Shown: piece after piece, positions 72-38,167 of the stretch
Layout of the letters: each line of letters begins with the position of its first letter
Numbering within the stretch: position 1 is the first letter of the stretch
Source of the DNA: a virus
Lineage: Duplodnaviria > Caudoviricetes
Length of the DNA stretch: 64,000 nucleotides
IMG/VR virus record: IMGVR_UViG_3300014204_000124
Coordinates: 32,001 to 96,000 of that record
Strand: one strand, 5' to 3'
The notes under the pieces: model-generated
Databases searched by the model: none
What the model saw: the letters and a program-made list of their open reading frames with translations, nothing else
Told to the model about the DNA's origin: nothing
Translations under genes and position numbers: made by a program

Positions 72-398
72 ATGAACCAGTTAGACAGGCTGAGGTTATT
101 GGTGGAAGCCAGTCAGCGGGGGGTTGCTCCTCGTACTGGGGAAGGCAAGGATATTCCGTCGTGGCGTCAGACGCTGAACAACGCACTGACTTATTCGTTT
201 GTGAACACGAATGTTTATCTCATTGTTGACGTTTTCAAGGACGGCGAGAAGGATACGACTGTGTCCGGCAGTGCGTCTAGGCTTTCCAGTTGGCTGGCCG
301 ATTTCCAGAAAACGAGTGGTGATGCTCGGGTCTCGGTTGAGATCAAGGCATTTTCTACGGATCGCAATTGGTCCAGGTCTAAGGCTGACGAGGTGTAA
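72..398 (+). CDS. Putative internal head (cargo) protein with shared N-terminal targeting peptide
   Basis: RBS GGAGG at 61-65; N-terminus MNQLDRLRLLVE|A matches the family peptide. Confidence 0.6.
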   Translation: MNQLDRLRLLVEASQRGVAPRTGEGKDIPSWRQTLNNALTYSFVNTNVYLIVDVFKDGEKDTTVSGSASRLSSWLADFQKTSGDARVSVEIKAFSTDRNWSRSKADEV

Positions 399-1137: not shown

Positions 1138-2475
1138 GTGGACGTTGTTGATCGATTCCGAATGGTGGTAGAGAGCAAGGCTATTGGGGCCGACAAGTCG
1201 GAAGAGATGGTTCGACGAGGTCTGAACACGTTTTCTGGGATGTACGATATTGCGTTGGAACAGTGGTTCTTGCGGGTGAACCGGCGGGAAGATGGGAAGG
1301 CTCGGAGTAGTCTGTTGCCGGGGAAAGCTAAGAAGGCATTGGCGAAGGTTTCGGCGTCTGTGAAGGCTTCGGTGAAGCCAGGGATGAGTGTGAAGCGGTG
1401 CTGGGGATTGTGGAAGGCAGCGGCGGCGGAAGCGTTTAGCGGGGAAGAGTACAAGAGTTTGTATGATAGCAAATGGGGTGAGTTGAAGCGAGCCAACGCC
1501 CAGTTGGACGCGTATTTTCGAGCCGCCAGTGACGGCGCAACGGAGGGTCTTATGAGAGATTTAGATAGGTTGAGAATGATTCTGGAAGCGGCTGACAAGA
1601 GTGTGACGAGGGTGAGGATATTGGCTCAGGCGCAGTCGGTCGAGGTCTGGGATAAGGACCGTCTTGTCATGGATTCCGAGAAGACCGATTTCCCGTTTGA
1701 GCCGAACTGGAAGGATTTACCAGGACTTGTAAAGCGTTGCCAGAAGGCATGGCCGAAGGCGAAAGTGGAGTTGAACGAATCGTTCGAATCTGACACGTTG
1801 AACCAACTTTTGGATATGGAAGTCGAACCTTCCCTGACAGAAGAGGGTGTCTCTGCGGACGGTTCTGCGATGATCGTCTTGAAGCTGGATTCTGAGTGGA
1901 AGAAGACGCAGAAGGCGTTGGTGGTAGTTGTCACGAAGGGGTTGGCAGCGGTGAATGCTTGGGCGAAGCAGCAGGGGCTGAAGTTCAAGAAGGCAGCGAA
2001 TCTGTTTGGCGGGGAGTACGTTGACGGGGAAGGCAACTTCTATGTGGCGTACCCTAAAATGCTGAAGGATGGTGCGGCTGAAGGCGGGCGTGTTGCTTGG
2101 GCTGAAGATGAGGACCGTGAGCCTGCGAATCTGGACGAAGCATCTGTGCCGCAGAAGTCGGAGGAAGCGTTCATTGCACCTATGGCGAAGGTAACGGGGA
2201 CGAAGTTCAAGTTGGGCCGAACGGTGATGACTGCCGGGGTCAATGCTGAGATTCAGGATACACCGGCTCTGGGTGGCTGGGTGGCTCAGTGTTTGCAGCG
2301 GCACGCCAAGGGCGACTGGGGCGACATTGACAAGGAAGACGAGGGTGAGAACGACAAGGCGTTGCAGAGCGGCGGGCGGCTCTTCTCCGTCTACAAGAAG
2401 GGGCGTGTAAAGATCTGGATTATCACAGAGGCAGATCGTAGTTCGACGACGGTGCTATTCCCGGATGAATACTAG
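1138..2475 (+). CDS. Multidomain putative internal head protein with two targeting peptides; C-terminal conserved plasmid/phage RH..GDWG...TT.L.P.EY domain
   Basis: MDVVDRFRMVVE|S at the start; second copy MRDLDRLRMILE|A at 1552 with its own GGAGGG; acidic linkers LNE|S, LTE|E, LDE|A. Confidence 0.65.
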   Translation: MDVVDRFRMVVESKAIGADKSEEMVRRGLNTFSGMYDIALEQWFLRVNRREDGKARSSLLPGKAKKALAKVSASVKASVKPGMSVKRCWGLWKAAAAEAFSGEEYKSLYDSKWGELKRANAQLDAYFRAASDGATEGLMRDLDRLRMILEAADKSVTRVRILAQAQSVEVWDKDRLVMDSEKTDFPFEPNWKDLPGLVKRCQKAWPKAKVELNESFESDTLNQLLDMEVEPSLTEEGVSADGSAMIVLKLDSEWKKTQKALVVVVTKGLAAVNAWAKQQGLKFKKAANLFGGEYVDGEGNFYVAYPKMLKDGAAEGGRVAWAEDEDREPANLDEASVPQKSEEAFIAPMAKVTGTKFKLGRTVMTAGVNAEIQDTPALGGWVAQCLQRHAKGDWGDIDKEDEGENDKALQSGGRLFSVYKKGRVKIWIITEADRSSTTVLFPDEY

Positions 2476-2483
2476 GGGGTGCC

Positions 2484-4718
2484 ATGAAAGCGATTGACCG
2501 GCTTGTGCGGGTGTTAGGGGAAGCGTTCGCAGACAGGGCAGAAGAGAGGGCTATGGTCTCTAATTTTGAGTCTGCGTTAAAGGCGTGGGTGAAGTCTTCC
2601 CCGAAAGAGTGGGGAGCGCGTGTTTCTGTACTAACGCCCATTATGAAGCGGTACGCTGGCACAGAGTTCCCGTTCTTGGTGATATTCGACGGGATATCTA
2701 GCGAAGGTCGCCCTGTCTCGTTCAAGTTGACGTATATCACAGCGGAGACGGCGGGGGGGTCTGGCGACGGTGGTATGGAGGTTGCTGCCCAGCATGGTGT
2801 TCCTGTGTGGAAGGGCCGTCGTTTCGACCGTTTATTTGTAGGTGACTTCAAGACTATCTGGCCCGAGTGGCTTGCGCATTGGGACGTTCGGATAAAGGCC
2901 GATATTGAGTCTGGGATTGAGGGAGGGAAGTTTGTTCTTGAGTCTTCCGATGACGAGTCGAATCTGACTGAGGCGGCGATAACAGGGGACAGTCTGTATG
3001 GCCCTGGGAAGGCTGCAAGCAAGTTCGTGAGGAAGCTGGATGTAACAGAGGCGGTGTTTCAACTGACCAAGTATTCTCTGCTGAATCCAGGTGTGATCAC
3101 GCTTGGCGGGAAGGCGGCGAAGGCAGTGTTTCGGGTGTCTGGCTACATTTTGATTGGTTTACCAGGGCGGGTGACGTTTTCAGCGGATTTTGACGATGTA
3201 GCGGTTCAAGTTGATATGGTGCTGGACGGGGAGAAGGCTACGGCGAAGGGTGCCACGGTTGCTTCTGGGATAGACTACGGGGACGCTATTGACGCTGAGG
3301 ATCTCATTGAGAAGCATCTTACGGATGGTGATGCTCTGAAGTTCTACGCCGATTTTTTTGATGATATTCAGGCGAAAGAGGTAGCCAAGGCAAGGGACGC
3401 TGAGGCTGCGAAGCATCCCGCACCTAAGTTTCGGGTTGGTGACAGAGTCTGGTTGCTCGACGACAAGTCTCGGGCTAGGGCTATGAAGTCGAAGGGGCTG
3501 TTCCGTATCGCGAAGTATCTGGGGATTAACACCGACATCCGGGGGGATGCTCACCAATATGAGATTGCTCTTCCTGGAGGAGTGCCGACAGCCGAGTACA
3601 CTAAGCGTTACGAAGGAGAACTTCGTGCTGCGACGTATGCGGAGATGAAGGCGTTTGAGAAGTTGAAGAAGGCGGTGAAGGAGGAGTTTGGAGAAGCGTC
3701 GGCAATGGACGTGACGGTGGTCACTCCTGACAACGAGTTGTCCGATTCGGAGTTGGCTGCCAGGATCAAGTCTTACGGCATCGACAGAAGGGCTGCATGG
3801 AGTCAGTTTGTCATAGCGAGGTCTTTGTCTCCACGTATGGATGCGAAGGACTTCATGGCTATTTTCGATGGAGTTTCGGCAAACCCTCACAAGAAGACGG
3901 TTCGGGTGGATTTCGAGCCTACGCATAGGTCAAAAGACAATCAGGGGCTGACGTGTATGGTGACCCAGCGTCTTCCCCAGCAGGTCCGCTATGTCTTGAG
4001 TCACGGGGGAACAGGGGCAGACCCAGTGTCTATGTTTGAAAAGGGGTGGATACCCATTGGTAAGTCTGAGTCCGTTTCCGAATCAGCGCCCAGTCCGAAA
4101 GCTGAGTGTTTCGAGGTGATGGGGAAGTTGTGGGCAGCGGTATTGAAGAAGACAGGTGCGGAGAAGGTTGCCGAGAAACTGAGCGGGGATGGTGCGAAGC
4201 CGTTCCAGGTCAACCTCGTGTTCATGGTTTCGGATCTGGCTGCCGACGTTCGCAATGCACCTATCGGACGGGGCATTCGCCAGTTCGGGCGTGGTCCTGG
4301 AGGGAGGCTCGGGATTGATCCGCCCGAATTGAGTCTGGAGGCTGCGAAGTGGTGGTATGACCAGACGGATGCGGTGCAATACACGATGACACGGGCGATT
4401 CTTGCGGAGTTTGCCAAATCCAAGGGAATCACCTATGACAAGAAGAAGATGATTGAGAGCGAGGACGAGTCTGAGCGGATGTTGATTGTCACCGATCTCG
4501 ACAGTCTGTATGCGAAGGCTCTGGCTGTGGACCGTCCGAAGAATTCCAATGTTCTGGAGACGGTTCGGCAGTTCTTGAAGCGTGTGCCTGGGTCTAAGCA
4601 ATATGAGTCCAGTGCGACGGGGGGGGAGGCTCCTACGGAAGCCGAGTTGACCTCTTGGGTTGGTGTTTTGAAGCGTTTTTTCTCTGACAACGGAGTGGAC
4701 TGCGGCTGCGAAGGCTAA
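2484..4718 (+). CDS. Large multidomain putative internal head polyprotein
   Basis: MKAIDRLVRVLGE|A start; linkers VLE|SSDDESNLTE|A, FGE|A, VSE|S, MIE|S; SH3/KOW-like segment KFRVGDRV. Confidence 0.65.
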   Translation: MKAIDRLVRVLGEAFADRAEERAMVSNFESALKAWVKSSPKEWGARVSVLTPIMKRYAGTEFPFLVIFDGISSEGRPVSFKLTYITAETAGGSGDGGMEVAAQHGVPVWKGRRFDRLFVGDFKTIWPEWLAHWDVRIKADIESGIEGGKFVLESSDDESNLTEAAITGDSLYGPGKAASKFVRKLDVTEAVFQLTKYSLLNPGVITLGGKAAKAVFRVSGYILIGLPGRVTFSADFDDVAVQVDMVLDGEKATAKGATVASGIDYGDAIDAEDLIEKHLTDGDALKFYADFFDDIQAKEVAKARDAEAAKHPAPKFRVGDRVWLLDDKSRARAMKSKGLFRIAKYLGINTDIRGDAHQYEIALPGGVPTAEYTKRYEGELRAATYAEMKAFEKLKKAVKEEFGEASAMDVTVVTPDNELSDSELAARIKSYGIDRRAAWSQFVIARSLSPRMDAKDFMAIFDGVSANPHKKTVRVDFEPTHRSKDNQGLTCMVTQRLPQQVRYVLSHGGTGADPVSMFEKGWIPIGKSESVSESAPSPKAECFEVMGKLWAAVLKKTGAEKVAEKLSGDGAKPFQVNLVFMVSDLAADVRNAPIGRGIRQFGRGPGGRLGIDPPELSLEAAKWWYDQTDAVQYTMTRAILAEFAKSKGITYDKKKMIESEDESERMLIVTDLDSLYAKALAVDRPKNSNVLETVRQFLKRVPGSKQYESSATGGEAPTEAELTSWVGVLKRFFSDNGVDCGCEG

Positions 4719-24440: not shown

Positions 24441-24821
24441 ATGAAGGACGTTATGACCATAGAAGAGGCGAGACAGCGGGTAGTGGACTTCGTCGGTCCG
24501 CCGTGGACGCCGGATGATGTGATCATTGGTGAGACGGGCACAAAGGGGTTCTTCTTTGCAAAAACGAGAGTTCCCGACGTTTCCGTATCGAGCAGAGGGA
24601 TTCAAGACTTCCACGGGCGGGAAGTGACGAAGGGATATGTTGCTTCTCGGCTGGTCGAGGCTCTATACAAGGCGGGGCAGATACTCCCGTGGGAGCGTGA
24701 GCTTGCCGGGTCGGAACATAGCCGGGAGACACTGTTCGAGGTATGCCATTCGCAGGAGAAGAAACTCGATAGCCTGGAGAGGCAAGTCGAGGAGTTGAAG
24801 GCATTGGCCGGAGGAGGATGA
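24441..24821 (+). CDS. Hypothetical protein, paralog of 19903
   Basis: GGAGG RBS; visible alignment with 19903. Confidence 0.65.
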   Translation: MKDVMTIEEARQRVVDFVGPPWTPDDVIIGETGTKGFFFAKTRVPDVSVSSRGIQDFHGREVTKGYVASRLVEALYKAGQILPWERELAGSEHSRETLFEVCHSQEKKLDSLERQVEELKALAGGG

Positions 24822-25252
24822 TGATGAATAGGTTCGATGTTGTAGCCGAGAAGTTCGAGGCGTTGTGTCGGCAGTACGCCATGCCTGTTCCGAGGGTCGT
24901 GCCGTCGTTGGCGACTGACCCGTGCGACTTCACGTCGGCAGAAGAGGTTCGGTTGAACGTGGAAGCTGCTGGGGAGATTGACGCTGACTACCATGCGAGG
25001 CATGTGTTCGGGCATTACCTATGTGATCTCCACTGTTCGGAGCCGAGCGGGAATCAGGATTGGGCAGACCCGATTGCCGATCTGATAGCGCAGTGGACGA
25101 CGAGCCATGATTCGATGGTCCGTTTGACCAGAGTATTCGAAGGGGCACGGTCATGTTCATCATCGGGAAGCATTGTAAGGATGTCCCTGGTGCAACCGAT
25201 GTCAGAAGGGGCGAATTTGGCATTTTGGCATGAGGGAAAGGAAGATGATTGA
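24818..25252 (+). CDS. Hypothetical protein with His cluster
   Basis: GGAGGA RBS; HARHVFGH. Confidence 0.55.
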   Translation: MMMNRFDVVAEKFEALCRQYAMPVPRVVPSLATDPCDFTSAEEVRLNVEAAGEIDADYHARHVFGHYLCDLHCSEPSGNQDWADPIADLIAQWTTSHDSMVRLTRVFEGARSCSSSGSIVRMSLVQPMSEGANLAFWHEGKEDD

Positions 25253-27127: not shown

Positions 27128-27391
27128 ATGTCAGAATTTAGAGACATACAGCGGGGGTGTCCGTATCGTGTCCAGAGCGAGAGACTAGGGAGGCAGCTTT
27201 GGGAATTGCGGCTTGTGGCGGAAGAAGAAGTGGAACAGATCACTCATTTTTGTATTAGGCGTGGTGGGCTAGGGTTTATGGGGGTCGAAGGTGTTGCCGA
27301 ATTTAGTGGATTTGGCCGTTTAGGAGATCCCTGTATGGAGGGCGTGTGTGTGGAGTTGAGGGTAATGAGGGGTGAGGCCGTAAGTATATGA
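27128..27391 (+). CDS. Hypothetical protein
   Basis: RBS, packed ORF. Confidence 0.5.
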   Translation: MSEFRDIQRGCPYRVQSERLGRQLWELRLVAEEEVEQITHFCIRRGGLGFMGVEGVAEFSGFGRLGDPCMEGVCVELRVMRGEAVSI

Positions 27392-28120: not shown

Positions 28121-29443
28121 ATGAAAGTGACTTTGACTGCGGTAACTGCCTGTGAGTTGCCGAAACCGTTCGGGGGGAAATTAGCCGTTGGTGAGTCCAC
28201 GCCTGCGACAAACATCCGGTTTAAGGATGTATTATCGGATGACTGGTTGGGGATTGTACGTCTTCGACAGCAGGGCATAGTGACGATGACGGTACAGGTT
28301 GATGCAGTCCCTGTATTTGACGACGAGTGGTTCATTGCCGAGATGGGCAAGGTTCGCGATAATGCTGCTGCTCCTGTGACCACTCTGGCTGCTCTGCGGG
28401 CCGTCCCGCAGAGTTTGCGAACGGATCGCCAACTCCGGTTGGTTGAGTCCGAGAACACGCTGTACAGGTTTGACCTGGGCACGCTGGTTGGTGGAGAAGC
28501 ACCGGATGACGAGGTAGATGGCAATTGGTTCAATCTTGGAACTGTGGCTGCTGTTTGGGGCGTTGTTGGTGAGTTGATTGCTATGGGGCCGGATGTTGCC
28601 GCTGGTGCTGGCGTTGTTTCCAAGATGGCTAGAATAGACCATACCCATGCCGTGAACACTGCGTTGGTTGCTGCCATCACCGATGTAGCACCGGATGCTG
28701 TAGCTGCTGCTGGCGTGGCGAACAGTTATGCTCGTGGCGACCACGCCCATGGTATCGCTACGTCGGTCACGGCATCGACGCAGGCTCCTGGCGATGTTGC
28801 TGCTGCTGGTGTTGCTGCGGACGTAAGCCGTGGCGACCATGTTCATGCCATGACTACTGGTCTGGTTGGTGAACTTGCTGCATTAGGGCCGGATGTTGCG
28901 GCTGGTGTGGGTGCTGTAGCCAAGTTTGCTGAGATTGCTCATACGCACGCCGTGAACACCGCTCTTGTCGGCGCTGTGGCGGATGTTGCTGCTGTAGCTG
29001 CTGCTGGCGTGGCGAACAGTTTCGCTCGTGGCGACCACGCCCATGCCATTGGTGCTGGCGTGGTGAAATCGGCGGATCTGGCTGTACAGGCGGCTGTAAC
29101 CGGTGGTATTCCGTTTGTTGTGGTGTTTACGCTTGCTGGTGGTGGTGCTGCCGAGGGTATGTTATGGAACGCCAATTGCCCCATGAAACTCCGTTTCATG
29201 GATGTTGGAATAATGGCAACCGTCGGAAGTGTGGGTGGCACTGTGACGCTGTATGATGACGACCCTTCGGGTGCCGGTGTCCCGCTGACAGATGCCATAG
29301 CCATGGATACTGACAAGGCGGTTACGCGCCTTGGTTCGGTTGAAGGCGACCCCACTGTTCTTGCTGGCGGGTCTCTGTGGTACAAGAAGAACGCTGCTGC
29401 CGATGGTGGCCACGTTACTCTTACGTGTGTTGCTGTGGCATAA
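28121..29443 (+). CDS. Ala/Val-rich fibre-like virion protein with HxH repeats
   Basis: Five [DA]H.H motifs (DHTH, DHAH, DHVH, AHTH, DHAH); ~60-aa internal duplication. Confidence 0.6.
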   Translation: MKVTLTAVTACELPKPFGGKLAVGESTPATNIRFKDVLSDDWLGIVRLRQQGIVTMTVQVDAVPVFDDEWFIAEMGKVRDNAAAPVTTLAALRAVPQSLRTDRQLRLVESENTLYRFDLGTLVGGEAPDDEVDGNWFNLGTVAAVWGVVGELIAMGPDVAAGAGVVSKMARIDHTHAVNTALVAAITDVAPDAVAAAGVANSYARGDHAHGIATSVTASTQAPGDVAAAGVAADVSRGDHVHAMTTGLVGELAALGPDVAAGVGAVAKFAEIAHTHAVNTALVGAVADVAAVAAAGVANSFARGDHAHAIGAGVVKSADLAVQAAVTGGIPFVVVFTLAGGGAAEGMLWNANCPMKLRFMDVGIMATVGSVGGTVTLYDDDPSGAGVPLTDAIAMDTDKAVTRLGSVEGDPTVLAGGSLWYKKNAAADGGHVTLTCVAVA

Positions 29444-29785: not shown

Positions 29786-30193
29786 ATGCGTTGGATAGTT
29801 GTGCTGGTTATTTTGTTGTTTGCGAGTGGGTGCGATTCTGGAGAGGTTTGGGGCACTGTCCTGGAGAATCTTTTACCTATAGTAACGGCGGTGCTTTTGC
29901 CGGTGCTGCTAGTTCTAGTTCGTAAGTTTCTCTTGTGGCTAGAGGTCAAGCTAGATTTCGACATGAACGAGGCTATTGAGCTGAAGATTCTCTCATTGAT
30001 TGAAGAGGGGATTCTTTATGCTGAGGAGCAGGCGTTGAAGGCTTTGAAGGATGGGAAGAAGTTGGGGTCAGACGACAAACTACGTCTAGCTATTGAATAC
30101 GTAGTAGAGCGTTGTAGAGATCTTGGTTTACCAGAGTTGGCAAGGGACAAATTAGTTAAGTTGGTCGAGTCTAAGGTCGGTGTAACCAGATAG
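29786..30193 (+). CDS. Holin, LL-H-like
   Basis: TM helices, then I.YAEEQ...K.G.DKL..A pattern. Confidence 0.6.
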   Translation: MRWIVVLVILLFASGCDSGEVWGTVLENLLPIVTAVLLPVLLVLVRKFLLWLEVKLDFDMNEAIELKILSLIEEGILYAEEQALKALKDGKKLGSDDKLRLAIEYVVERCRDLGLPELARDKLVKLVESKVGVTR

Positions 30194-30605: not shown

Positions 30606-30842
30606 TTGCGGAAGCGGTTCATGTTTTGCGAGGTGGCTGGCAAGTCAGTTTTGAAGGAAAAGTGCAAGGGGTGTTCGACATTTCCCAAGCTGAGTCCAGA
30701 GTTTGCTGCGTTTCGGGATTCGTGTCCTGTATGGCAGGAGATTTTGAGAGTAGCGAAGGAATCGAAGGCAGAGCGAATGTCAAGGGTTATAGAGAACCCA
30801 TTTACTCTGCCCACAGACGAAGACCCTGGTGTTGCATATTGA
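30606..30842 (+). CDS. Small Cys-rich protein
   Basis: GGAGG RBS before a TTG start. Confidence 0.55.
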   Translation: MRKRFMFCEVAGKSVLKEKCKGCSTFPKLSPEFAAFRDSCPVWQEILRVAKESKAERMSRVIENPFTLPTDEDPGVAY

Positions 30843-30859
30843 TATCTTGAATAGGTCTG

Positions 30860-31204
30860 ATGGTTCGGTTAGAGTGTGGCAGTCGGAGGTTTGTCATGGA
30901 AAGTCTGCTGCTGTTTCTGGAGAGTGTATTTGAGGTTGAGGTTCCGGCGGATGTAACGAGTATTGTGTTGGTGCGGAAGACAGGGAAGGCTCGTGGGGTT
31001 GTGAGACGGGGCGGTGACCGTGTTTACGAGGCGAAGGGTGGTGCATTCCAGGCGTTATTGAGGGAGTGTGTGGAGTGGAGCGGGGAGGGGGATGTTCCGG
31101 TTGTCGAGGTTGACGACGGGTTTGTGGAATATGCGTTTGTGTCCGGGGCTTGGCGGAAGGTTGTCGAGTCTGGGACGAGGCGTGTCGTATATGCAGGAGC
31201 GTAA
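30860..31204 (+). CDS. Hypothetical protein
   Basis: Packed ORF. Confidence 0.55.
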   Translation: MVRLECGSRRFVMESLLLFLESVFEVEVPADVTSIVLVRKTGKARGVVRRGGDRVYEAKGGAFQALLRECVEWSGEGDVPVVEVDDGFVEYAFVSGAWRKVVESGTRRVVYAGA

Positions 31205-31205
31205 C

Positions 31206-31787
31206 ATGGACGTTATCGATAGATTGAAGTCGTTGGTTGAGTCTGCCCAAGTCGATGTACCCGCTGCGCAGGGAAATACGTTTGGGGAGTCTGCTGGATG
31301 CGACGATACGGCGGATGCCATTGGTGGGGCAGAGCACTATCGGGTGACGTGTCCAGTGTGCGGGGGTGTGACGCAGTGCCGGTGCAATTATGCGCAGCAC
31401 GAGGGCGTTGAGGTATTCGAGGCTTCGGTGGTCTGCGAACGATGCAAGGCCAGCGTTGGGGAGTCGGTCGATGGGGCGCAATCGGTTGCAACTGAGATTT
31501 TGCGACAGCTTGGAGGCCAGAAACTCAGGGCAATGCTTGGCATGAAGGGTTATTTGGTGGTGGATGCTTCGGAAGGGTTCAGTGGCGGTGTGGACTTCAA
31601 GTTTCCTAACAAGACCAAGACGGCTCCGAACAGGGTGGAGATTCTGTTGGCAGACGACGACACCTATACGGTGCGGTTCTACCGGGATTCGAGGAAGTTG
31701 AAAGAACACGACGGGATTTACGCAGACGGTCTCATAGATGTATTCGAGTCAGAGACGGGGCTGTATCTGGCGCTTTCGAGGAGGTAA
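31206..31787 (+). CDS. Putative internal head cargo protein: Zn-finger module plus conserved phage domain (ILRQLGG...DTYTV.F...IY.D.L..VFE..TGL)
   Basis: MDVIDRLKSLVE|S; linkers FGE|S and VGE|S flank the CPVC..CRC..CERC module. Confidence 0.7.
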   Translation: MDVIDRLKSLVESAQVDVPAAQGNTFGESAGCDDTADAIGGAEHYRVTCPVCGGVTQCRCNYAQHEGVEVFEASVVCERCKASVGESVDGAQSVATEILRQLGGQKLRAMLGMKGYLVVDASEGFSGGVDFKFPNKTKTAPNRVEILLADDDTYTVRFYRDSRKLKEHDGIYADGLIDVFESETGLYLALSRR

Positions 31788-31788
31788 C

Positions 31789-32187
31789 ATGCGTACATGG
31801 GCACAGGTAGAGCAGGATATTTCAATCGAAGAAGCGAAAGCTCCGAAGCTCACCAATATGGCGACACTTATCACTGCGGGTCTGGACGAACTTATTTCCA
31901 GAGTGATCAATCAGTTGCCAGCGAGAGTGGTTGGTAAGGGCAGAATCCGGGCTTTTGTTGACGACGCGTTGAAGGTAGAAGCGGACGGCGAAGGGACATC
32001 TAAAGGCGACCTCCCCTTGAAGTGGTACATGGTTGCTTGGTGGACCCCGAATTCTGGGGATGGCCGGGTAACATGTTCTTTCACGGTCCCCGATCGTGGC
32101 ACAGTCGAGTTGAAGTATGACTTCGATTTGGACACGGATTTGGGCAAGGTCGTCGGGCAGGTCGTGTCGGGTCTAACATCGGTATGA
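31789..32187 (+). CDS. Putative cargo protein with divergent leader
   Basis: GAGGAGG RBS; MRTWAQVEQDISIEE|A; lies inside the cargo cluster. Confidence 0.5.
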   Translation: MRTWAQVEQDISIEEAKAPKLTNMATLITAGLDELISRVINQLPARVVGKGRIRAFVDDALKVEADGEGTSKGDLPLKWYMVAWWTPNSGDGRVTCSFTVPDRGTVELKYDFDLDTDLGKVVGQVVSGLTSV

Positions 32188-32195
32188 GGTAACGA

Positions 32196-32600
32196 ATGAA
32201 TACGATAGATAGGTTTGGCCTGTTGGTCGAGGGGACGTTGACTGAGGCCACGAAGTTGCCGTTGACGATGGATGAGTCGGTGGTGGCGACGATGACGGAG
32301 CTGTTGAAGGCGAGCATTGCTGCTTTGCCTGGGCCGTATCTGAAAAAAGAGATCAAGGTTAGCGAATACCGACCAAATGCGCGTATAGCTTTCGCAGCGG
32401 GCAAGACGACGACGAGGTCTGACATTGAGGCGGATGTGACGGTGTCCATAGGTTTTATTGGGCCGTACTCTTACTCAGCTACGGTTGAGGTAGACGGGAG
32501 CAAGCGTGAGTACGAGTTCAAGGGCAGCAAGCCTTTATCCGAGGTTTCGAGGACGATAACGGATATCATTGCCCAGATGACTGGGTGGACGGGGGCGTAA
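32196..32600 (+). CDS. Putative internal head cargo protein
   Basis: MNTIDRFGLLVE|GTLTE|A. Confidence 0.65.
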   Translation: MNTIDRFGLLVEGTLTEATKLPLTMDESVVATMTELLKASIAALPGPYLKKEIKVSEYRPNARIAFAAGKTTTRSDIEADVTVSIGFIGPYSYSATVEVDGSKREYEFKGSKPLSEVSRTITDIIAQMTGWTGA

Positions 32601-32601
32601 A

Positions 32602-33126
32602 ATGGGGACCATTGAACGATTGAGGGCGTTGGTTTCTGAGTCTTCGGGCGACTCGGTTTTTTCCAAGACGTGGTTGCAGAAGTCGGTGTATTTGCCGTTT
32701 GCCACCATGATAGCCAAATTGGTGCGTGCTAATCTGCAAGACTACCTGGGGAACAATACGGGGCTGAAGGTGGAGCGTGCGGTCGGCGGGGATGTTTATG
32801 TCCATGTGGAGTTCTTCGCTGAGAGCAATCATGGGTCGAAGGCTCATCCTTCGCTTCGCGGGTCTTCGACCTATAGGGCGATGCTGTTTTTCCATGGGCT
32901 GGATGAGGACAAGGCGGAAGTCAGGGCTGTCGGGTTGTCTATAGCGATGCCTCTCGTGAACGAGAAGGGACGTGTTGCTGCGATTGAGAAGTTGGAGGTA
33001 GAGTTAAAAGGGCAGAAGCTGACCAGCGAATGGTTCAACAAGGCGTTCAAGCCTTTGTTTCAGGAGCTTCGGGTGAAGGCAGCCGATTTGAGTTCGGATG
33101 ATACGGGGTGGGATTATGAGGACTAG
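32602..33126 (+). CDS. Putative internal head cargo protein
   Basis: MGTIERLRALVSE|S. Confidence 0.65.
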   Translation: MGTIERLRALVSESSGDSVFSKTWLQKSVYLPFATMIAKLVRANLQDYLGNNTGLKVERAVGGDVYVHVEFFAESNHGSKAHPSLRGSSTYRAMLFFHGLDEDKAEVRAVGLSIAMPLVNEKGRVAAIEKLEVELKGQKLTSEWFNKAFKPLFQELRVKAADLSSDDTGWDYED

Positions 33127-33532
33127 CGTATTGGCTTTGGCTCTGTTGTGTTCGTGTGCGACTTCGCAGGTGGCTCCTGTGTTGCCGAAGGTTGTAGTGG
33201 AGTCTATTCCTGTTCCCGGACCTATAGAGGACGGGGAGGATTGGGTTGCTTCATACGAGTCTTGCGACGACATTGACAAGCCTGGGATCATCATGGGTGC
33301 TGGGAAGGCATTGCGTTGCAAGTGGTACAAGGTCGAGTTCGAGCATTTTTCTGCTCTGTATTTAGCAGAGGCGAACATGCGTGCGGCGGAGCACGAGGCG
33401 ATTGAGTCGTACATGGCGGGTCTGGGTCGGGGGACGTGGTTTGAGGAGAACGAGTTTTGGATAGGTGGCACAGCTGGTGTGGTGTTTGGGGTCGGGTTGA
33501 CGGCTCTGATAGTCTACGCCCTTGGTCAATAA
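33116..33532 (+). CDS. Lipoprotein with C-terminal TM (u-spanin-like architecture)
   Basis: Lipobox LCSC; C-terminal FWIGGTAGVVFGVGLTALIVYALG. Confidence 0.55.
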   Translation: MRTSVLALALLCSCATSQVAPVLPKVVVESIPVPGPIEDGEDWVASYESCDDIDKPGIIMGAGKALRCKWYKVEFEHFSALYLAEANMRAAEHEAIESYMAGLGRGTWFEENEFWIGGTAGVVFGVGLTALIVYALGQ

Positions 33533-33541
33533 GGAGATATC

Positions 33542-34009
33542 ATGGATATGATTCAAAGATTTGCAAGGCTTCTTAGCGAAGAGAAAATTGTCATGAAATT
33601 CTATGGCAACTCTTTTCTGGCGAAGTATTCTTCGGAAAGGGGATACAAGCCATGGATGCAAGCCATTTCTGACATTGTTGCCAAACACTTCGGGAAGAAG
33701 GTAGTTATAGAAGACATATACGAGGGCCAGCCTGGGTATGATTTCTGTCGGTGGAACTTCGATATAAGAGGGGACGGAATACGTTTCTTCGGGTCGTTGG
33801 TTTTCAAAAAGAGTCCGGTAGACGATTTCGGGACTGTGTCTGTTGGTTTGAAACGCCTTGGGACTCCTGGAGTGGATGAAGATGTCTGGCTGTTCAGGGA
33901 CAAGGAATTCCCGTTGTCGAAGTGGGAAGACGAGTGGGACGTTGACAAGGCTGCTCTGGCCAAGGTCGAACAGTTGGTCCGTTCTTCTCTTAAGAAGCTC
34001 AAGGCTTGA
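33542..34009 (+). CDS. Putative internal head cargo protein
   Basis: TAAGGAG RBS; MDMIQRFARLLSE|E. Confidence 0.65.
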   Translation: MDMIQRFARLLSEEKIVMKFYGNSFLAKYSSERGYKPWMQAISDIVAKHFGKKVVIEDIYEGQPGYDFCRWNFDIRGDGIRFFGSLVFKKSPVDDFGTVSVGLKRLGTPGVDEDVWLFRDKEFPLSKWEDEWDVDKAALAKVEQLVRSSLKKLKA

Positions 34010-34025
34010 TCTAAAAGGAGATACA

Positions 34026-34526
34026 ATGGATACGATTAATAGGTTTCGAGGGATTCTGACAGAGGCTACTGAAGGGTCGGCGTTCGTGAAGAAGTGGTTG
34101 GGGAAAAGCCTGCGTATGAAGTACGAGGGCGAAGCGATGCAGTTGTTGGCTGATGGATTTGGCGACGGCGAAGTGAAGGCCGGGGATATTCGCAACTCTG
34201 TCGAGGGTCCGGGGCCAGCCAATTTGGGAGCTGACGGTGCTGAGCGAACGGTTACTTCCACGTATCGTTTTGAGAGCAAGGGATTGCGGGTCGAGGCCGT
34301 GTTCGAGTGGTTCGGAGCCGGGAACACTGAAGACCAAGATGATGCGGACCAGATTGGGTTTGACATTACACTTTCAACGGGTGGCAAGGTGCTGGACCGG
34401 GATGGGGCGCAAGTTCAGTTCAAGACTGGCAAGGAGCCTGGGGCGAAGTTCATAAGTGCGTTCAGTAAGGTCTACAACAAGATGGCGAAGGATTACCTAA
34501 AGACATCTCTTAGCAAAAAGGTGTAA
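34026..34526 (+). CDS. Putative internal head cargo protein
   Basis: AAGGAG RBS; MDTINRFRGILTE|A. Confidence 0.65.
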   Translation: MDTINRFRGILTEATEGSAFVKKWLGKSLRMKYEGEAMQLLADGFGDGEVKAGDIRNSVEGPGPANLGADGAERTVTSTYRFESKGLRVEAVFEWFGAGNTEDQDDADQIGFDITLSTGGKVLDRDGAQVQFKTGKEPGAKFISAFSKVYNKMAKDYLKTSLSKKV

Positions 34527-34548
34527 TCCACTTAGAGTGAGGTGCGGC

Positions 34549-35513
34549 ATGGATACCATAGGTCGGTTGAAGGTTCTGTTGGAAGGTTCTGATTTGGCTT
34601 CGGCCATGACCCGTTGGGCAGACTGGTGGGGCAAGCAGGGTCCGAAACTTCTCAAGGAATACCAGGACATGATGGATGGGATGGACATGCTCGTAGTGAG
34701 GTCGAAGTACATGCCCGCCGTGGTCAAGGGTGAAGAGGCGGAGGACAATCCGATGCCACGAAAGGTCCGTTGTATGATGGTGGAATTTCGTTTCGGTTCA
34801 AGGGGTCATCCAAGGCAGACTCTGTAAAAATCATGAAAAACACATGGCCATCGCAGGACAAGCTAGTTGTCTATGACATGTTCTTCATGAAGAAAGGCCG
34901 TGTGGTACGCTCATACACGGAGGTCGTCGCAGCAGCTCTTATACCCTATTTTACATCAGTAACCGGGTTGAAGATTGGTGGGCAAACAAGGCCATGGGGG
35001 GAGAGTCTTGGCTTTGACGTGGTAGAGGGAACGGTCTCCGACGAGTCCAGGAAGACTTTTGTCAAGTGGTTGCTCAAGACATTCCCTGACTACGAGAAGG
35101 TGGCGTTTGAGATTTTGACAAAGGAGCTTGGGGCGTTGGTTGCCGGTGGGTTCAAGCAGACGGACAGTACCAGGGACGAAAACGGGTTGGGGTTCGAGTA
35201 CGAATCTGTTGCCAAAACGAAAATAGGGAAGACTCCTGGGGCGGCCCCGGAAGACGACATGCTCATTCGGCACATCATAGGTGACACGCTGCCGACGTTT
35301 AGGCTGGAGTTGTATGGTGAACACGGCGACGACGCTGCCGGGCACACTCTGGGTTGGACGATGGACATGTATTCGAGGGGCAAGAACGTCGAAGAGGACG
35401 GGATAATTGAGTGGGATGAGGTTGCACCTACTCCCGAGCGATTCGGGAAAGCCTTTGCTATTACAGCCAAGAAGTTCGGGGATGCTGTACGCACCAAGCT
35501 GGCCAAAAAATAA
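34549..35513 (+). pseudogene. Two-domain cargo protein with a -1 frameshift near 34750 (possibly a sequencing error)
   Basis: MDTIGRLKVLLE|G; one extra C at 34750 joins ORFs 34537 and 34770 (EDNPDATKGPLYDGG); domain 1 resembles the C-terminal domain of 31206, domain 2 resembles 34026. Confidence 0.6.
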
Positions 35514-35527
35514 TCTATACGCCACGC

Positions 35528-35589
35528 TTGACATTTCCCCTCTCCCCGATTATGCTGTAAGGGTTCGTTACCGAACCGGAGGTTACAGT
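35528..35589 (+). promoter_or_regulatory. Repeated promoter element, copy 6 (variant)
   Basis: TTGACA-N17-TATGCTGTAAG; GGTTCG-TTAC-CGAACC; GGAGG; TTACAGT complementary to GCTGTAA. Confidence 0.8.
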
Positions 35590-38167
35590 GGGGCACGTTA
35601 TCGATTTATTCGGTGTTTTGGGGGGACAGAGGGAAGATGAGCGTGAGCGGAATATGGCGAAGTTTGCCATTCCCGTAGAGTCTCCCCGTCCGAAACCTGC
35701 TCCCATGCCTGAGAGGCCGGGGTTTCGGCCCGATGGCGTCTGGATTGAGGGTAACGAGATTGTGGTGAAGGCTGCGTACAATCCTGATTCGCTAGCGCCT
35801 GCGCGAGACATTGTTGGGCGGCGCTGGGATTCGGCTGCGAAAGTGACCCGGTTTCCACTATCTTCGAGGGACGCTGTTCGGGCCTGGGTGACACGCTTTT
35901 GGCCCAAGTTGAGTGTGAAGGCACTTGACACAATCGGGGCCGTAGAGCCGAGGATCGAAGTCAGGGAAAACGGGGCATTTCTGTATATTAAGACGCCTTA
36001 TGCGAAGGCATTTGTGGATGGGATGCACGAGCTTCCAGATTGTGAGTATCAGCGTGACGGGTCGAAGGAATGGAAAGTTCCGAGGGACAGAGTTGCGCAG
36101 CTTGCGCAGCTTGCGGAGCGGGTGTACGGGGCGAAGTCGAAGGTTTTGGAAGCCGTTGTTCGGGAGAGTCAAGAGAAGCTGGCTCTGGCCACGGCAGTCA
36201 AGGCAAGCGAGACGATTGAACTGCCCGGCGGGACACTATTTCCATTCCAGGTTGCCGGAGTACAGTTCATAGAAAAGAACAAGTACGCTCTTATAGCGGA
36301 TGAAATGGGCTGCATTGACGGAGACGCTGTAATCAGTTATAGCCGTGCCAGCGTAACTCGCAAATGCACGCTTGCAGAGTTGTATGTGAAGTTCAACCGT
36401 GGCCGTTTCCAAGACGGAATCCCGACTTTTGTGAAGTCTATGTGCGATGGGATTTTGAAGTTGAACCGGGTCGTTTCGGTGCTTGACAAGGGGACTCGCC
36501 CGGTTGTTTTGTTGACACTGGAGAGTGGGAAGACGTTGCGACTGACTCCCGATCATGAAGTTGCCGTGTCTCTCACGGAATTTGCAAGAGTGGACTCGTT
36601 GTCCCCAGGGGACATTGTCTTGACAAAACTCAAAGAAGGCAAGTTCGTTGACAGGGAAGGGGGCACGGCGGGAACTGGGGGCAAGATTGTTTTTATACCG
36701 AAAGAAGATCGTGTTGTTTCAGTCCGAGACGACGGTGTCGCCCATGTTTACGATATCGTGATGGCAGATCCGTACAGAAATTTCGTTGCCGGGGGAGTTG
36801 TCGTTCACAATTGCGGGAAAACGGTCCAGTCAATCGCATACATGTACAGGAATCCCCAGAGTCTTCCGGCGATTGTCGTGTGTCCTGCTAGTGTGAAGGA
36901 AAACTGGAGGCGTGAGATTGAGCATTGGGGTGGAGGCAAGTTGAGTGTGGCGATTGCGGTGCCGAAGAGTTTGGATGGGCAACTTGCAATGAATCCGCCG
37001 AACGTCTTGATCATCAACTACGATCAACTTGGGAAGCTAGTTCTTGAAGACGAGGACATTGTCACGGGGAAGTCAAAACTTTCGGTGCGGCCCAGCGTGT
37101 TGAGGTGGGGGCCGAAGCTAGTCGTGTTCGACGAGGCTCATTATCTCAAGAATTCGAAAGCGAAGCGGAGCAAGGCAGCGGGTGCTATTGCCGAGTTGAC
37201 GGGGCGTCGGGTGATTGAGCTGACAGGGACTCCGGTATTGAATAGGCCGGAAGAATTGTGGCATTTGCTTCACTTGATAGACCCGGAAGCGTGGGGAAGC
37301 GAGAGCAAGTTCAAGTACCGATATTGCGACTGGGAAAAGGCTTGGCACGGTCACGCCGTACGCGTGGGGGCGCAGCGCCTGGACGAGTTGCACAGTCGGG
37401 TGACGGGGCATTACATGGTCCGGCGCTTGAAGAAGGATGTGCTGAAGGAATTGCCAGACAAGATTCGTTCCTGCGTTCCGTTGTGTCTGGAGCCAGCGTT
37501 TGTCGCGGCGTATCGGAAATTGTTTGACAAAACGGCAGCGAAGATCCTTTCGGAGACGGGCGGGCACTTCTCTGCACAGAACTTGGCAGTGGTGAAGGCC
37601 GCTGTAAACACGTTGCGGCAGGAAATTGGGTTGTTGAAAGCCCCCCTCGCGGCAGCGTGGGTTCAAGAGGCTTTGGAGAGCACGGACAAGGTTGTGATTT
37701 TCTCATATCATCATGCGGTGACGGACAAGATCGTCGAGGTGTTGTTGCAGGCCGGGGTGACTGTAGCGAGGATGGACGGGCGCGATTCGTTGGAGAGCAG
37801 ACAGATTGCTGTTGATGCGTTCCAGAACGGGAAATTACAGGTTTTGGCTTGCGGTATCTTGGCAGCGGGTGTTGGCCTGAATCTTACGGCTGCGGATCAA
37901 GTGGTGTTTGCCGAGCGTGCCTGGAGACCGGCGGACCACGAACAAGCGGAAGATCGACTTCACAGAATCGGGCAGAAACGGTGTGTGAATGTGTGGTTTT
38001 TGGATGCCGAGGGGACGATAGACGAGGATGTTCGGGACTTACAGCGCGTGAAGCGAGAGGCTATTTCGCAAACGATAGATGGCGGTGATTCGAGCCATGG
38101 GATGGAAGAGTCACTGGCTGTTCAAGTAGCGTTGCGCATGTTGCGCAGATTCCAAGAGAAGGGGTGA
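35588..38167 (+). CDS. SNF2-family helicase with N-terminal HARP-like domains and an intein
   Basis: ADEMG[intein]CGKT, VCPAS, INYD, DEAH, LTGTP..N, RRLK, G.GLNLT, QAEDR.HRIGQ. Confidence 0.92.
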   Translation: MGHVIDLFGVLGGQREDERERNMAKFAIPVESPRPKPAPMPERPGFRPDGVWIEGNEIVVKAAYNPDSLAPARDIVGRRWDSAAKVTRFPLSSRDAVRAWVTRFWPKLSVKALDTIGAVEPRIEVRENGAFLYIKTPYAKAFVDGMHELPDCEYQRDGSKEWKVPRDRVAQLAQLAERVYGAKSKVLEAVVRESQEKLALATAVKASETIELPGGTLFPFQVAGVQFIEKNKYALIADEMGCIDGDAVISYSRASVTRKCTLAELYVKFNRGRFQDGIPTFVKSMCDGILKLNRVVSVLDKGTRPVVLLTLESGKTLRLTPDHEVAVSLTEFARVDSLSPGDIVLTKLKEGKFVDREGGTAGTGGKIVFIPKEDRVVSVRDDGVAHVYDIVMADPYRNFVAGGVVVHNCGKTVQSIAYMYRNPQSLPAIVVCPASVKENWRREIEHWGGGKLSVAIAVPKSLDGQLAMNPPNVLIINYDQLGKLVLEDEDIVTGKSKLSVRPSVLRWGPKLVVFDEAHYLKNSKAKRSKAAGAIAELTGRRVIELTGTPVLNRPEELWHLLHLIDPEAWGSESKFKYRYCDWEKAWHGHAVRVGAQRLDELHSRVTGHYMVRRLKKDVLKELPDKIRSCVPLCLEPAFVAAYRKLFDKTAAKILSETGGHFSAQNLAVVKAAVNTLRQEIGLLKAPLAAAWVQEALESTDKVVIFSYHHAVTDKIVEVLLQAGVTVARMDGRDSLESRQIAVDAFQNGKLQVLACGILAAGVGLNLTAADQVVFAERAWRPADHEQAEDRLHRIGQKRCVNVWFLDAEGTIDEDVRDLQRVKREAISQTIDGGDSSHGMEESLAVQVALRMLRRFQEKG
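36311..36811 (+). mobile_element. Mini-intein (167 aa) in Walker A of the SNF2 helicase
   Basis: C1 CIDGDA; block B LRLTPDH; block F VYDI; C-terminal VVVHN followed by Cys+1; no LAGLIDADG. Confidence 0.9.

Follow-up and report, generated by a model that had tools for sequence, protein, structure and literature searches.

The internal proteins of bacteriophage T4 carry N-terminal capsid targeting sequences (CTS) of 10–19 residues (PMC9026906, PMC5694885), and the 10-residue form, which the protease gp21 removes, is enough to carry foreign proteins into the head (PMC3012670, PMC9026906). In IPIII, residues 4 and 7 of the tag serve targeting and residues 8 and 10 serve processing (PMC9026906). 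T4 gp21 and the corresponding proteases of phiKZ and SPN3US cut after the Glu of a three-residue motif (PMC9026906, PMC5694885); gp21 itself has L-I-E at residue 9 (PMC9026906). The internal proteins found in T-even phages are highly diverse and have the CTS alone in common, which may serve in evolution as a device by which varied proteins are loaded (PMC3012670, PMC9026906). Here we describe a putative counterpart in a 64,000-nucleotide stretch of DNA (the window), which comprises bases 32001–96000 of the 129,634-bp IMG/VR record of an uncultured phage, G000. A peptide of 12–13 residues, referred to below as the tag, begins a set of proteins that are mostly dissimilar beyond it. Judged by its sequence, the tag is, in our view, probably a capsid-targeting propeptide of the T4 type.

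The tag is described by the motif M-x-x-h-[DENQG]-R-[LF]-x-x-h-h-(x)-E, in which h is hydrophobic. Applied as a strict regular expression to all six frames, this motif matches the window exactly ten times, always on the plus strand and directly after a start codon; these matches are the ten N-termini listed by an earlier note on this DNA (Table 1). The whole record gives 13 six-frame matches, 12 of them directly after ATG or GTG, and two of these copies begin genes outside the window. The 12 tags stand on 11 genes because the copy at 1552 is internal to the open reading frame (ORF) at 1138–2475, where it may mark an internal start or else a point at which the protein is cleaved internally. Among the called G000 proteins the expression matches 12 times, against a mean of 0.34 expected (maximum 3) from 500 residue shuffles, and it matches the reversed proteins once. 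A hidden Markov model (HMM) of the 12 peptides scores the tags at 16–23 bits and the next six-frame match at 7.5 bits, and 10 of the 12 copies are regained among the top 12 when each is left out in turn. By expression and HMM alike the matches are confined to protein N-termini, as the earlier note had predicted, the one addition being an internal Met that has a ribosome-binding site of its own.

Within the tag, Met1, Arg6 and the final Glu are invariant, and positions 4, 7, 10 and 11 are always Leu, Ile, Val or Phe. Four of the 12 copies have one extra residue before the Glu and form a 13-residue class. All 12 end in [LIV]-x-E, with Ser, Ala or Gly as the next residue in 11 copies and Glu in one, and this putative propeptide end (hydrophobic-x-Glu, then mostly a small residue) conforms to the prohead-protease motif in every case. 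The tagged genes cover ~6.9% of the genome, encode proteins of 92 to 744 residues, and are grouped as two islands and one single locus. Two near-miss starts were also seen, one at window 24818–25252 that is one residue short and one at genome 13051 that has Lys for Arg and a GTG start; like a borderline start at window 29450, they were left out of the counts.

The codons for the invariant Arg, Leu and Glu vary freely between copies and the 60 nt of DNA upstream are unrelated, and the constraint therefore acts on the peptide, not on DNA or RNA. A nucleotide-level repeat as the source of the conservation was rejected on this codon variation. Mosaic breakpoints in related DNA do fall on tagged start codons (see below), as might be expected of a translation-initiation region, an RNA structure or a recombination site, but the DNA cassettes that recur in this genome are elements of another kind and are situated outside the tags, and we give almost no credence to a nucleotide-level element in place of a peptide.

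The G000 record has short direct terminal repeats, a GC content of 53% and ~180 genes, all placed on the plus strand by a simple codon-usage caller. No related record was found by blastn of the genome or island against 50,697 deposited phage records, and only two were found in IMG/VR: G001 (133,713 bp, complete) and G002, a fragment of a near-identical phage. Locus searches of IMG/VR with a 440-residue upstream protein or with the capsid protein alone gave nothing, and a search with a capsid alignment gave the same two relatives only. When a degenerate DNA pattern of the tag was run over IMG/VR, it produced 15 singleton matches, with ~17 expected by chance, and no clusters; the tag in this spelling is therefore confined to a small clade.

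Pfam and PHROGs matches place a head module just past the right end of the window. It includes a portal of the gp20 type (Portal_T4, PF07230, 5e-42), followed by two small charged proteins, and a capsid protein of the gp23 type (Gp23, PF07068, 5.9e-60). The prediction that a gp21-type prohead protease (MEROPS S77) would be encoded elsewhere in the genome proved correct: the ORF at genome 104661–106343 matches Peptidase_S77 (PF03420, 5e-11, above the cut-off) and phrog_207 (3e-36), and it matches the T4 gp21 structure 5JBL (4e-7) with 'DHP' and 'SSRG' motifs aligned. These positions we take to be those of the catalytic His and Ser of T4 gp21. Capsid protein, portal and protease of these T4 types are thus found in one genome with the tags. 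The G000 capsid protein is at most 31% identical to that of any deposited phage and, judged by sequence, the phage belongs to a remote branch of the T4 capsid superfamily. The portal gene (genome 100075–102837) is interrupted by an intein with an HNH nuclease.

The protease ORF has 560 residues, of which the first ~190 form the Peptidase_S77 domain (genome 104661–105230) and the C-terminal ~370 are long, charged, helical, coiled-coil and scaffold-like; the same fusion is present in G001. This one-ORF arrangement resembles protease-scaffold fusions, unlike the separate gp21 and gp22 of T4, and the prohead core would consist of the coiled-coil tail together with the two small charged proteins. 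Several of the head proteins carry candidate cut sites of their own. The protease begins with a 12-mer that ends in L-I-E, in the same register as the tags, and is conserved in G001. In the capsid protein a candidate site L-T-E/D-V lies ~25 residues ahead of a conserved PxLIA block, and each of the two small core proteins has a candidate h-x-E site at its N-terminus, as the protease has near its C-terminus; all are kept in G000 and G001. The end of the tag matches these candidate gp21-type sites.

If the shared N-terminus is a T4-type propeptide, the tag would dock each carrier onto the prohead core during head assembly, this core being built around the protease with its fused coiled-coil, scaffold-like tail. 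After closure of the shell the gp21-family serine protease would cut behind the terminal Glu of the tag, and the mature protein, freed inside the head, would remain alongside the DNA and probably enter the next host by ejection. We infer each of these steps, from docking and cleavage to retention in the virion and ejection, as well as a role in anti-defence or host takeover; that the injected proteins act against host defences is a plausible guess, for which T4 offers an example in IPI*, directed against GmrSD.

Comparison with G001 shows conserved positions for the tagged genes and a fast turnover of what follows the tag. In both phages island 1 is bordered by two conserved genes, one with a CCGGKCG motif and one for a membrane protein; island 2 is enclosed by a conserved lysis-like block and the helicase, and the single tagged locus separates the last tail gene from the first baseplate gene. 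Tag-like ORF starts are found in G001 at 27195, 27786, 28110, 33080, 34926, 37099, 37920 and 112599. Three of these N-terminal Met residues take ranks 1–3 in a six-frame scan of the whole of G001 with an HMM built from G000 only. The helicases of the two phages are 57% identical, their protease domains 75% and their capsid proteins 70%, with the head genes overall at 42–75%. Nine of the 11 tagged G000 genes, however, have no tblastn match in G001; the exceptions are the 744-residue protein, of which two modules recur at G001 28606–29358, and the 31206 protein, of which the domain is matched. The length of island 1 is 5.6 kb in G000, as against 2.5 kb in G001.

Homologs of the cargo were sought among 5.8 billion proteins. 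The protein P0002 is 46% identical to the 32602 protein and keeps the 13-residue tag, whereas P0004, 66% identical to the 31206 protein, has the same tag, ~150 extra residues, and then a zinc ribbon and a C-terminal domain that are also the same. No locus was recovered when metagenomes were scanned with P0004. In G001 the tag is fused directly to a domain of the phrog_9437 type (see below), with a C-terminal extension after it. Contigs from four public runs were compared over window 30800–35700. In two groundwater runs, from a different study, long stretches are identical to the window. A landfill contig has the P0004-type tag, then unrelated sequence, and rejoins the window at 31286, and a groundwater contig follows the window to 32601 and continues with the P0002 tag, so that the switch falls exactly at the tagged start codon. 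These joints indicate that the islands are mosaic in nature, joined at or just behind the tag. In the phage lineages, it appears, cargo modules are swapped, inserted or fused while the tag in front of them stays unchanged.

This turnover bears on an alternative in which the tag is a removable head-assembly propeptide and its carriers are accessories of the core or scaffold, degraded or kept as structural filler, as with T4 gp67, gp68 and the morphogenetic side of IPIII, with no injected effectors among them. The related h-x-E peptides at the N-termini of the protease and of the two small core proteins after the portal would suit such a role, as would the fact that the cargoes lack a basic character and any enzymatic or inhibitor domain that can be recognised, and T4 IPIII does affect head assembly (PMC9026906). 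Assembly proteins are normally conserved, however, whereas most tagged genes lack a G001 match while the head genes do not, and modules are inserted or swapped behind the tag; module swaps and missing matches fit a dispensable, fast-evolving cargo. We regard the accessory role as unlikely. A more extended form of the targeting reading makes the tag also the joint of a cassette system, in which modules are exchanged, inserted or fused at or behind the tag codons. A phage population would then have a shuffled stock of effectors delivered by the head, some of them multi-module polyproteins that are cut into several proteins within the capsid, and the tag could be carried over to other T4-type heads as a handle for protein delivery. 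This extension is possible, although we hold it to be doubtful.

The description of the cargo as unrelated holds for most pairs of mature parts, which are dissimilar, but is only partly true because two paralogous pairs exist. The 32602 and 34026 proteins align end to end (28% identity, Z 5.2), and the 31206 protein and the 34770–35513 ORF have one ~100-residue domain in common (E 2e-4); apart from these pairs, no pairwise similarity was found among the mature tagged proteins. The common domain is of the phrog_9437 type, which is very common in phages without the tag (5,761 protein clusters in a profile search) and occurs stand-alone or within long proteins, eight of which gave no Pfam family. 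Its AlphaFold2 (AF2) model, with a predicted local distance difference test score (pLDDT) of 91, comprises two helices, a five-stranded sheet and a helix. Searches with this model gave nothing below E 0.1 in the PDB with Foldseek, uncharacterised phage proteins only in BFVD, and a best Z of 7.2 with VIA-align, which is at background level. For the cargo as a whole, Pfam, PHROGs, ESM Atlas and fold searches gave no lead to function: Pfam and PHROGs revealed no recognisable enzymatic or inhibitor domain, and ESM Atlas no usable match. The AF2 model of the 32602 protein, from a three-sequence alignment, has a pLDDT of 52.

The two pairs raise the question of whether all carriers descend from one old paralogous family whose N-terminal helix is simply its slowest-evolving part, with no addressing role. 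Several small island-2 proteins are also modelled, at low confidence, with an alike helix-sheet-helix outline. The carriers nevertheless span the whole size range given above with no other pairwise similarity, the same tag precedes a domain that is widespread without it, and P0004 has an unrelated module between tag and domain. The first 12 residues alone rarely form the core of a family, and we consider common descent of this kind very improbable.

Two unrelated members of the phrog_9437-type family, P0023 and P0085, begin with tag-like peptides. One of these is a 10-mer, with I-D-R-V-R-A-L-L-E after the Met; the other reads M-D-A-L-T-R-L-R-K-L... and stands on a 1,122-residue protein. They hint at related tags in other, unsampled phages.

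Several observations weigh against capsid targeting. The helical hydrophobic moment exceeds that of shuffles in only two of the 12 tags, for which reason 'amphipathic', the term used in the earlier note, is a loose description; AF2 draws the tag as a separate helix, but with a pLDDT there of only 27–44. The isoelectric points of the mature cargoes (4.9–8.9) show that they are not basic, whereas the literature describes T4 internal proteins as basic (PMC9026906). The units that contain the islands are headed by the same sigma-70-like promoters as many non-structural genes. The tag and the T4 CTS correspond only in Met1, Thr3 (in five of 12 copies), hydrophobic positions 4 and 7, and the Glu at the end. 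The G001 tags are looser, with Lys for Arg and extra residues, and because of this degeneracy the clade-wide definition of the tag is soft. Finally, the tagged gene at genome 184 has tail genes on one side and baseplate genes on the other, as does the G001 gene in the corresponding place, a position that would also fit a tail-associated role.

The last point, together with the invariant Arg6, which has no counterpart in the T4 tag, and the location of island 2 among membrane, holin-like and lipoprotein-like genes, could mean that the tag addresses its carriers elsewhere, be it to the membrane, to a chaperone of the phage or to its tail or baseplate, and that its terminal Glu motif is coincidental. 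Such a coincidence would have to extend to all 12 copies, each ending in the type of motif cut by gp21-family proteases, and to the protease itself, which begins with its 12-mer in the tag register. No tag, moreover, has the long hydrophobic stretch typical of a signal peptide. Another address is, we believe, quite improbable, and targeting to the capsid remains the reading that we prefer.

The features of the two islands and of the tagged genes outside the window are collected in Table 1.

Table 1. Tagged genes of G000 and neighbouring features. Positions are those of the window unless marked as genome positions.
Feature	Position	Strand	Remarks
Tagged gene, outside window	genome 184		matches the expression after start codon
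Tagged gene, outside window	genome 31083, end at window 72		matches the expression after start codon
Tagged ORF, 108 aa, island 1	72..398	+	tag is first 12 codons
Tagged ORF, 445 aa, island 1	1138..2475	+	GTG start; tag is first 12 codons
Second, internal tag copy in 445-aa ORF	1552..1587	+	in-frame ATG, GGAGG 5 nt upstream
Tagged ORF, 744 aa, island 1	2484..4718	+	13-residue tag class
Possible variant-tag ORF, 107 aa	29450..29773	+	weak evidence
Tagged ORF, 193 aa	31206..31787	+	tag, linker, CxxC...CxxC zinc ribbon, ~100-aa phrog_9437-type domain
Untagged ORF, 132 aa, within island 2	31789..32187	+	
Tagged ORF, 134 aa	32196..32600	+	orphan
Tagged ORF, 174 aa	32602..33126	+	ortholog P0002; distant paralog of 34026 ORF
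Untagged ORF, 144 aa, lipoprotein-like leader	33098..33532	+	48% identical in G001; fixed landmark in island 2
Tagged ORF, 155 aa	33542..34009	+	orphan; 13-residue tag class
Tagged ORF, 166 aa	34026..34526	+	paralog of 32602 ORF
Tagged ORF, 92 aa	34549..34827	+	end lies within the frame of the next ORF
Open frame at -1 relative to 34549 ORF	34734..35513	+	C-terminal two thirds of phrog_9437-type domain, then ~180-aa extension
Promoter-like cassette TTGACA-N17-TATGCT(GTAAG)	35528..35556	+	closes island 2 before helicase gene

At the end of island 2 the tagged 92-residue ORF is overlapped by a -1 frame that is open from 34734. Homology to the phrog_9437-type domain begins at 34752 in this frame, ahead of its first possible start codon, TTG at 34770, from which the ORF (34770–35513) would encode 247 residues. 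The overlap at 34734–34827 is identical, with no indel, in contigs of two runs from an independent groundwater study, and an assembly error was rejected on these grounds. No classical slippery heptamer was seen in the overlap. The 34734 frame is probably the continuation of the tagged ORF, as one gene read through a -1 shift or as a split gene; the overlap could reflect programmed frameshifting, a split gene or a dead gene.

The placing of the genes next to structural and lysis genes, as the earlier note had it, finds little support in the matches, the only one of this kind being to a holin family, just below the Pfam cut-off, at 29786–30193. The possible variant-tag ORF ahead of it is 48% identical to an orthologous G001 ORF that scores as tagged, and both have h-h-E/G at residues 15–19. 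Within island 2, a homolog search with the untagged 31789 ORF gave none. Island 1 contains an untagged ORF of 227 residues (404–1087), whose first ~44 residues resemble small ORFs of the baseplate module (genome 8774–8899 and G001 121204–121464, 60% identity); it may encode a tail-fibre-like protein with a shared attachment N-terminus. The SNF2-type helicase that follows island 2 (35588–38167) has an intein-like insert of ~167 residues (C...HN/C, residues 242–408), which is apparently absent from G001, because the match to the G001 ortholog is ~230 residues shorter.

Both cargo islands end directly before a promoter cassette, TTGAC-N17-TATGCT. A promoter-like cassette TTGAC-N17-TATGCTGTAAG occurs on the plus strand only, in about a dozen copies (11 exact cores genome-wide, plus looser variants), at sites that include window 4725 (a looser variant), 6446, 11421, 16294, 25826, 35551, 40044, 43552 and 59597. 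The T4 late-promoter box TATAAATA was not found on the coding (plus) strand, and one copy lies on the other strand. The promoter and terminator scan gave no fix on when the islands are expressed, and no RNA set was listed among the sequencing runs in which the phage occurs.

If capsid targeting is correct, T4-type heads would have a second capsid-targeting tag that is defined by its sequence and whose natural set of cargo is unusually large, and the principle of the T4 tag would be general and evolvable across the T4 capsid superfamily, far beyond the T-even phages. The motif would provide a sequence rule for spotting candidate injected proteins in uncultured phages, and tag and protease would form a second pair for packaging foreign proteins in phage heads. 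The cargoes, all orphans except for one widespread phage domain, would be candidates for anti-defence or host-takeover roles.

Among described systems, the giant phages and phage P1 offer partial parallels. The proteases of phiKZ (gp175) and SPN3US (gp245) act on many head-internal proteins (head ejection and inner-body proteins), some of them paralogous, that are cut at a Glu-ending three-residue motif, as would be the case in G000; some giant-phage paralogs even have identical N-terminal 15-mers (PMC5694885). Their propeptides, however, are mostly longer than 100 residues, with the motif A/S/G-x-E, and no single short tag is spread across unrelated proteins. In P1, an N-terminal signal of DarB is enough to bring this large anti-restriction protein, and likewise a reporter, inside the head (PMC9024508). 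The Dar proteins nevertheless have no common consensus, P1 belongs to another head lineage, and the signal is not described as a protease-released 12-mer.

The closest parallel is with T4 itself. In T4 (IPI, IPII, IPIII and Alt) as in G000, a short N-terminal propeptide that ends in h-x-E plus a small residue stands on sequence-diverse proteins; IPII and IPIII, as read from the T4 genes, both start MKTYQEFIAE followed by Ala. Both tags have hydrophobic residues at positions 4 and 7, each phage encodes a protease of the gp21 family (S77) together with a gp20 portal and a gp23 capsid protein, and in both the gene set varies between related phages. The T4 ipII and ipIII genes adjoin the lysozyme gene e, and island 2 of G000 follows the holin-like gene. 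The G000 tag differs in sequence and has 12–13 residues to the 10 of T4, with P3 and P1 two residues further along and an invariant Arg6, and it is analogous, not homologous, to the T4 CTS. It occurs as 12 tags on 11 genes, compared with about four in T4. Among the carriers are two long multi-module proteins, one of them with a second, internal tag. In contrast to T4, the mature cargo is not basic and the protease has its coiled-coil tail in place of a separate gp22, in a lineage distant from the T-even phages. Diverse internal proteins that have only a targeting tag in common are already known from the T-even phages. On every feature that can be compared at the level of sequence, except the similarity of the tags themselves, the G000 system agrees with the T4 CTS kind.

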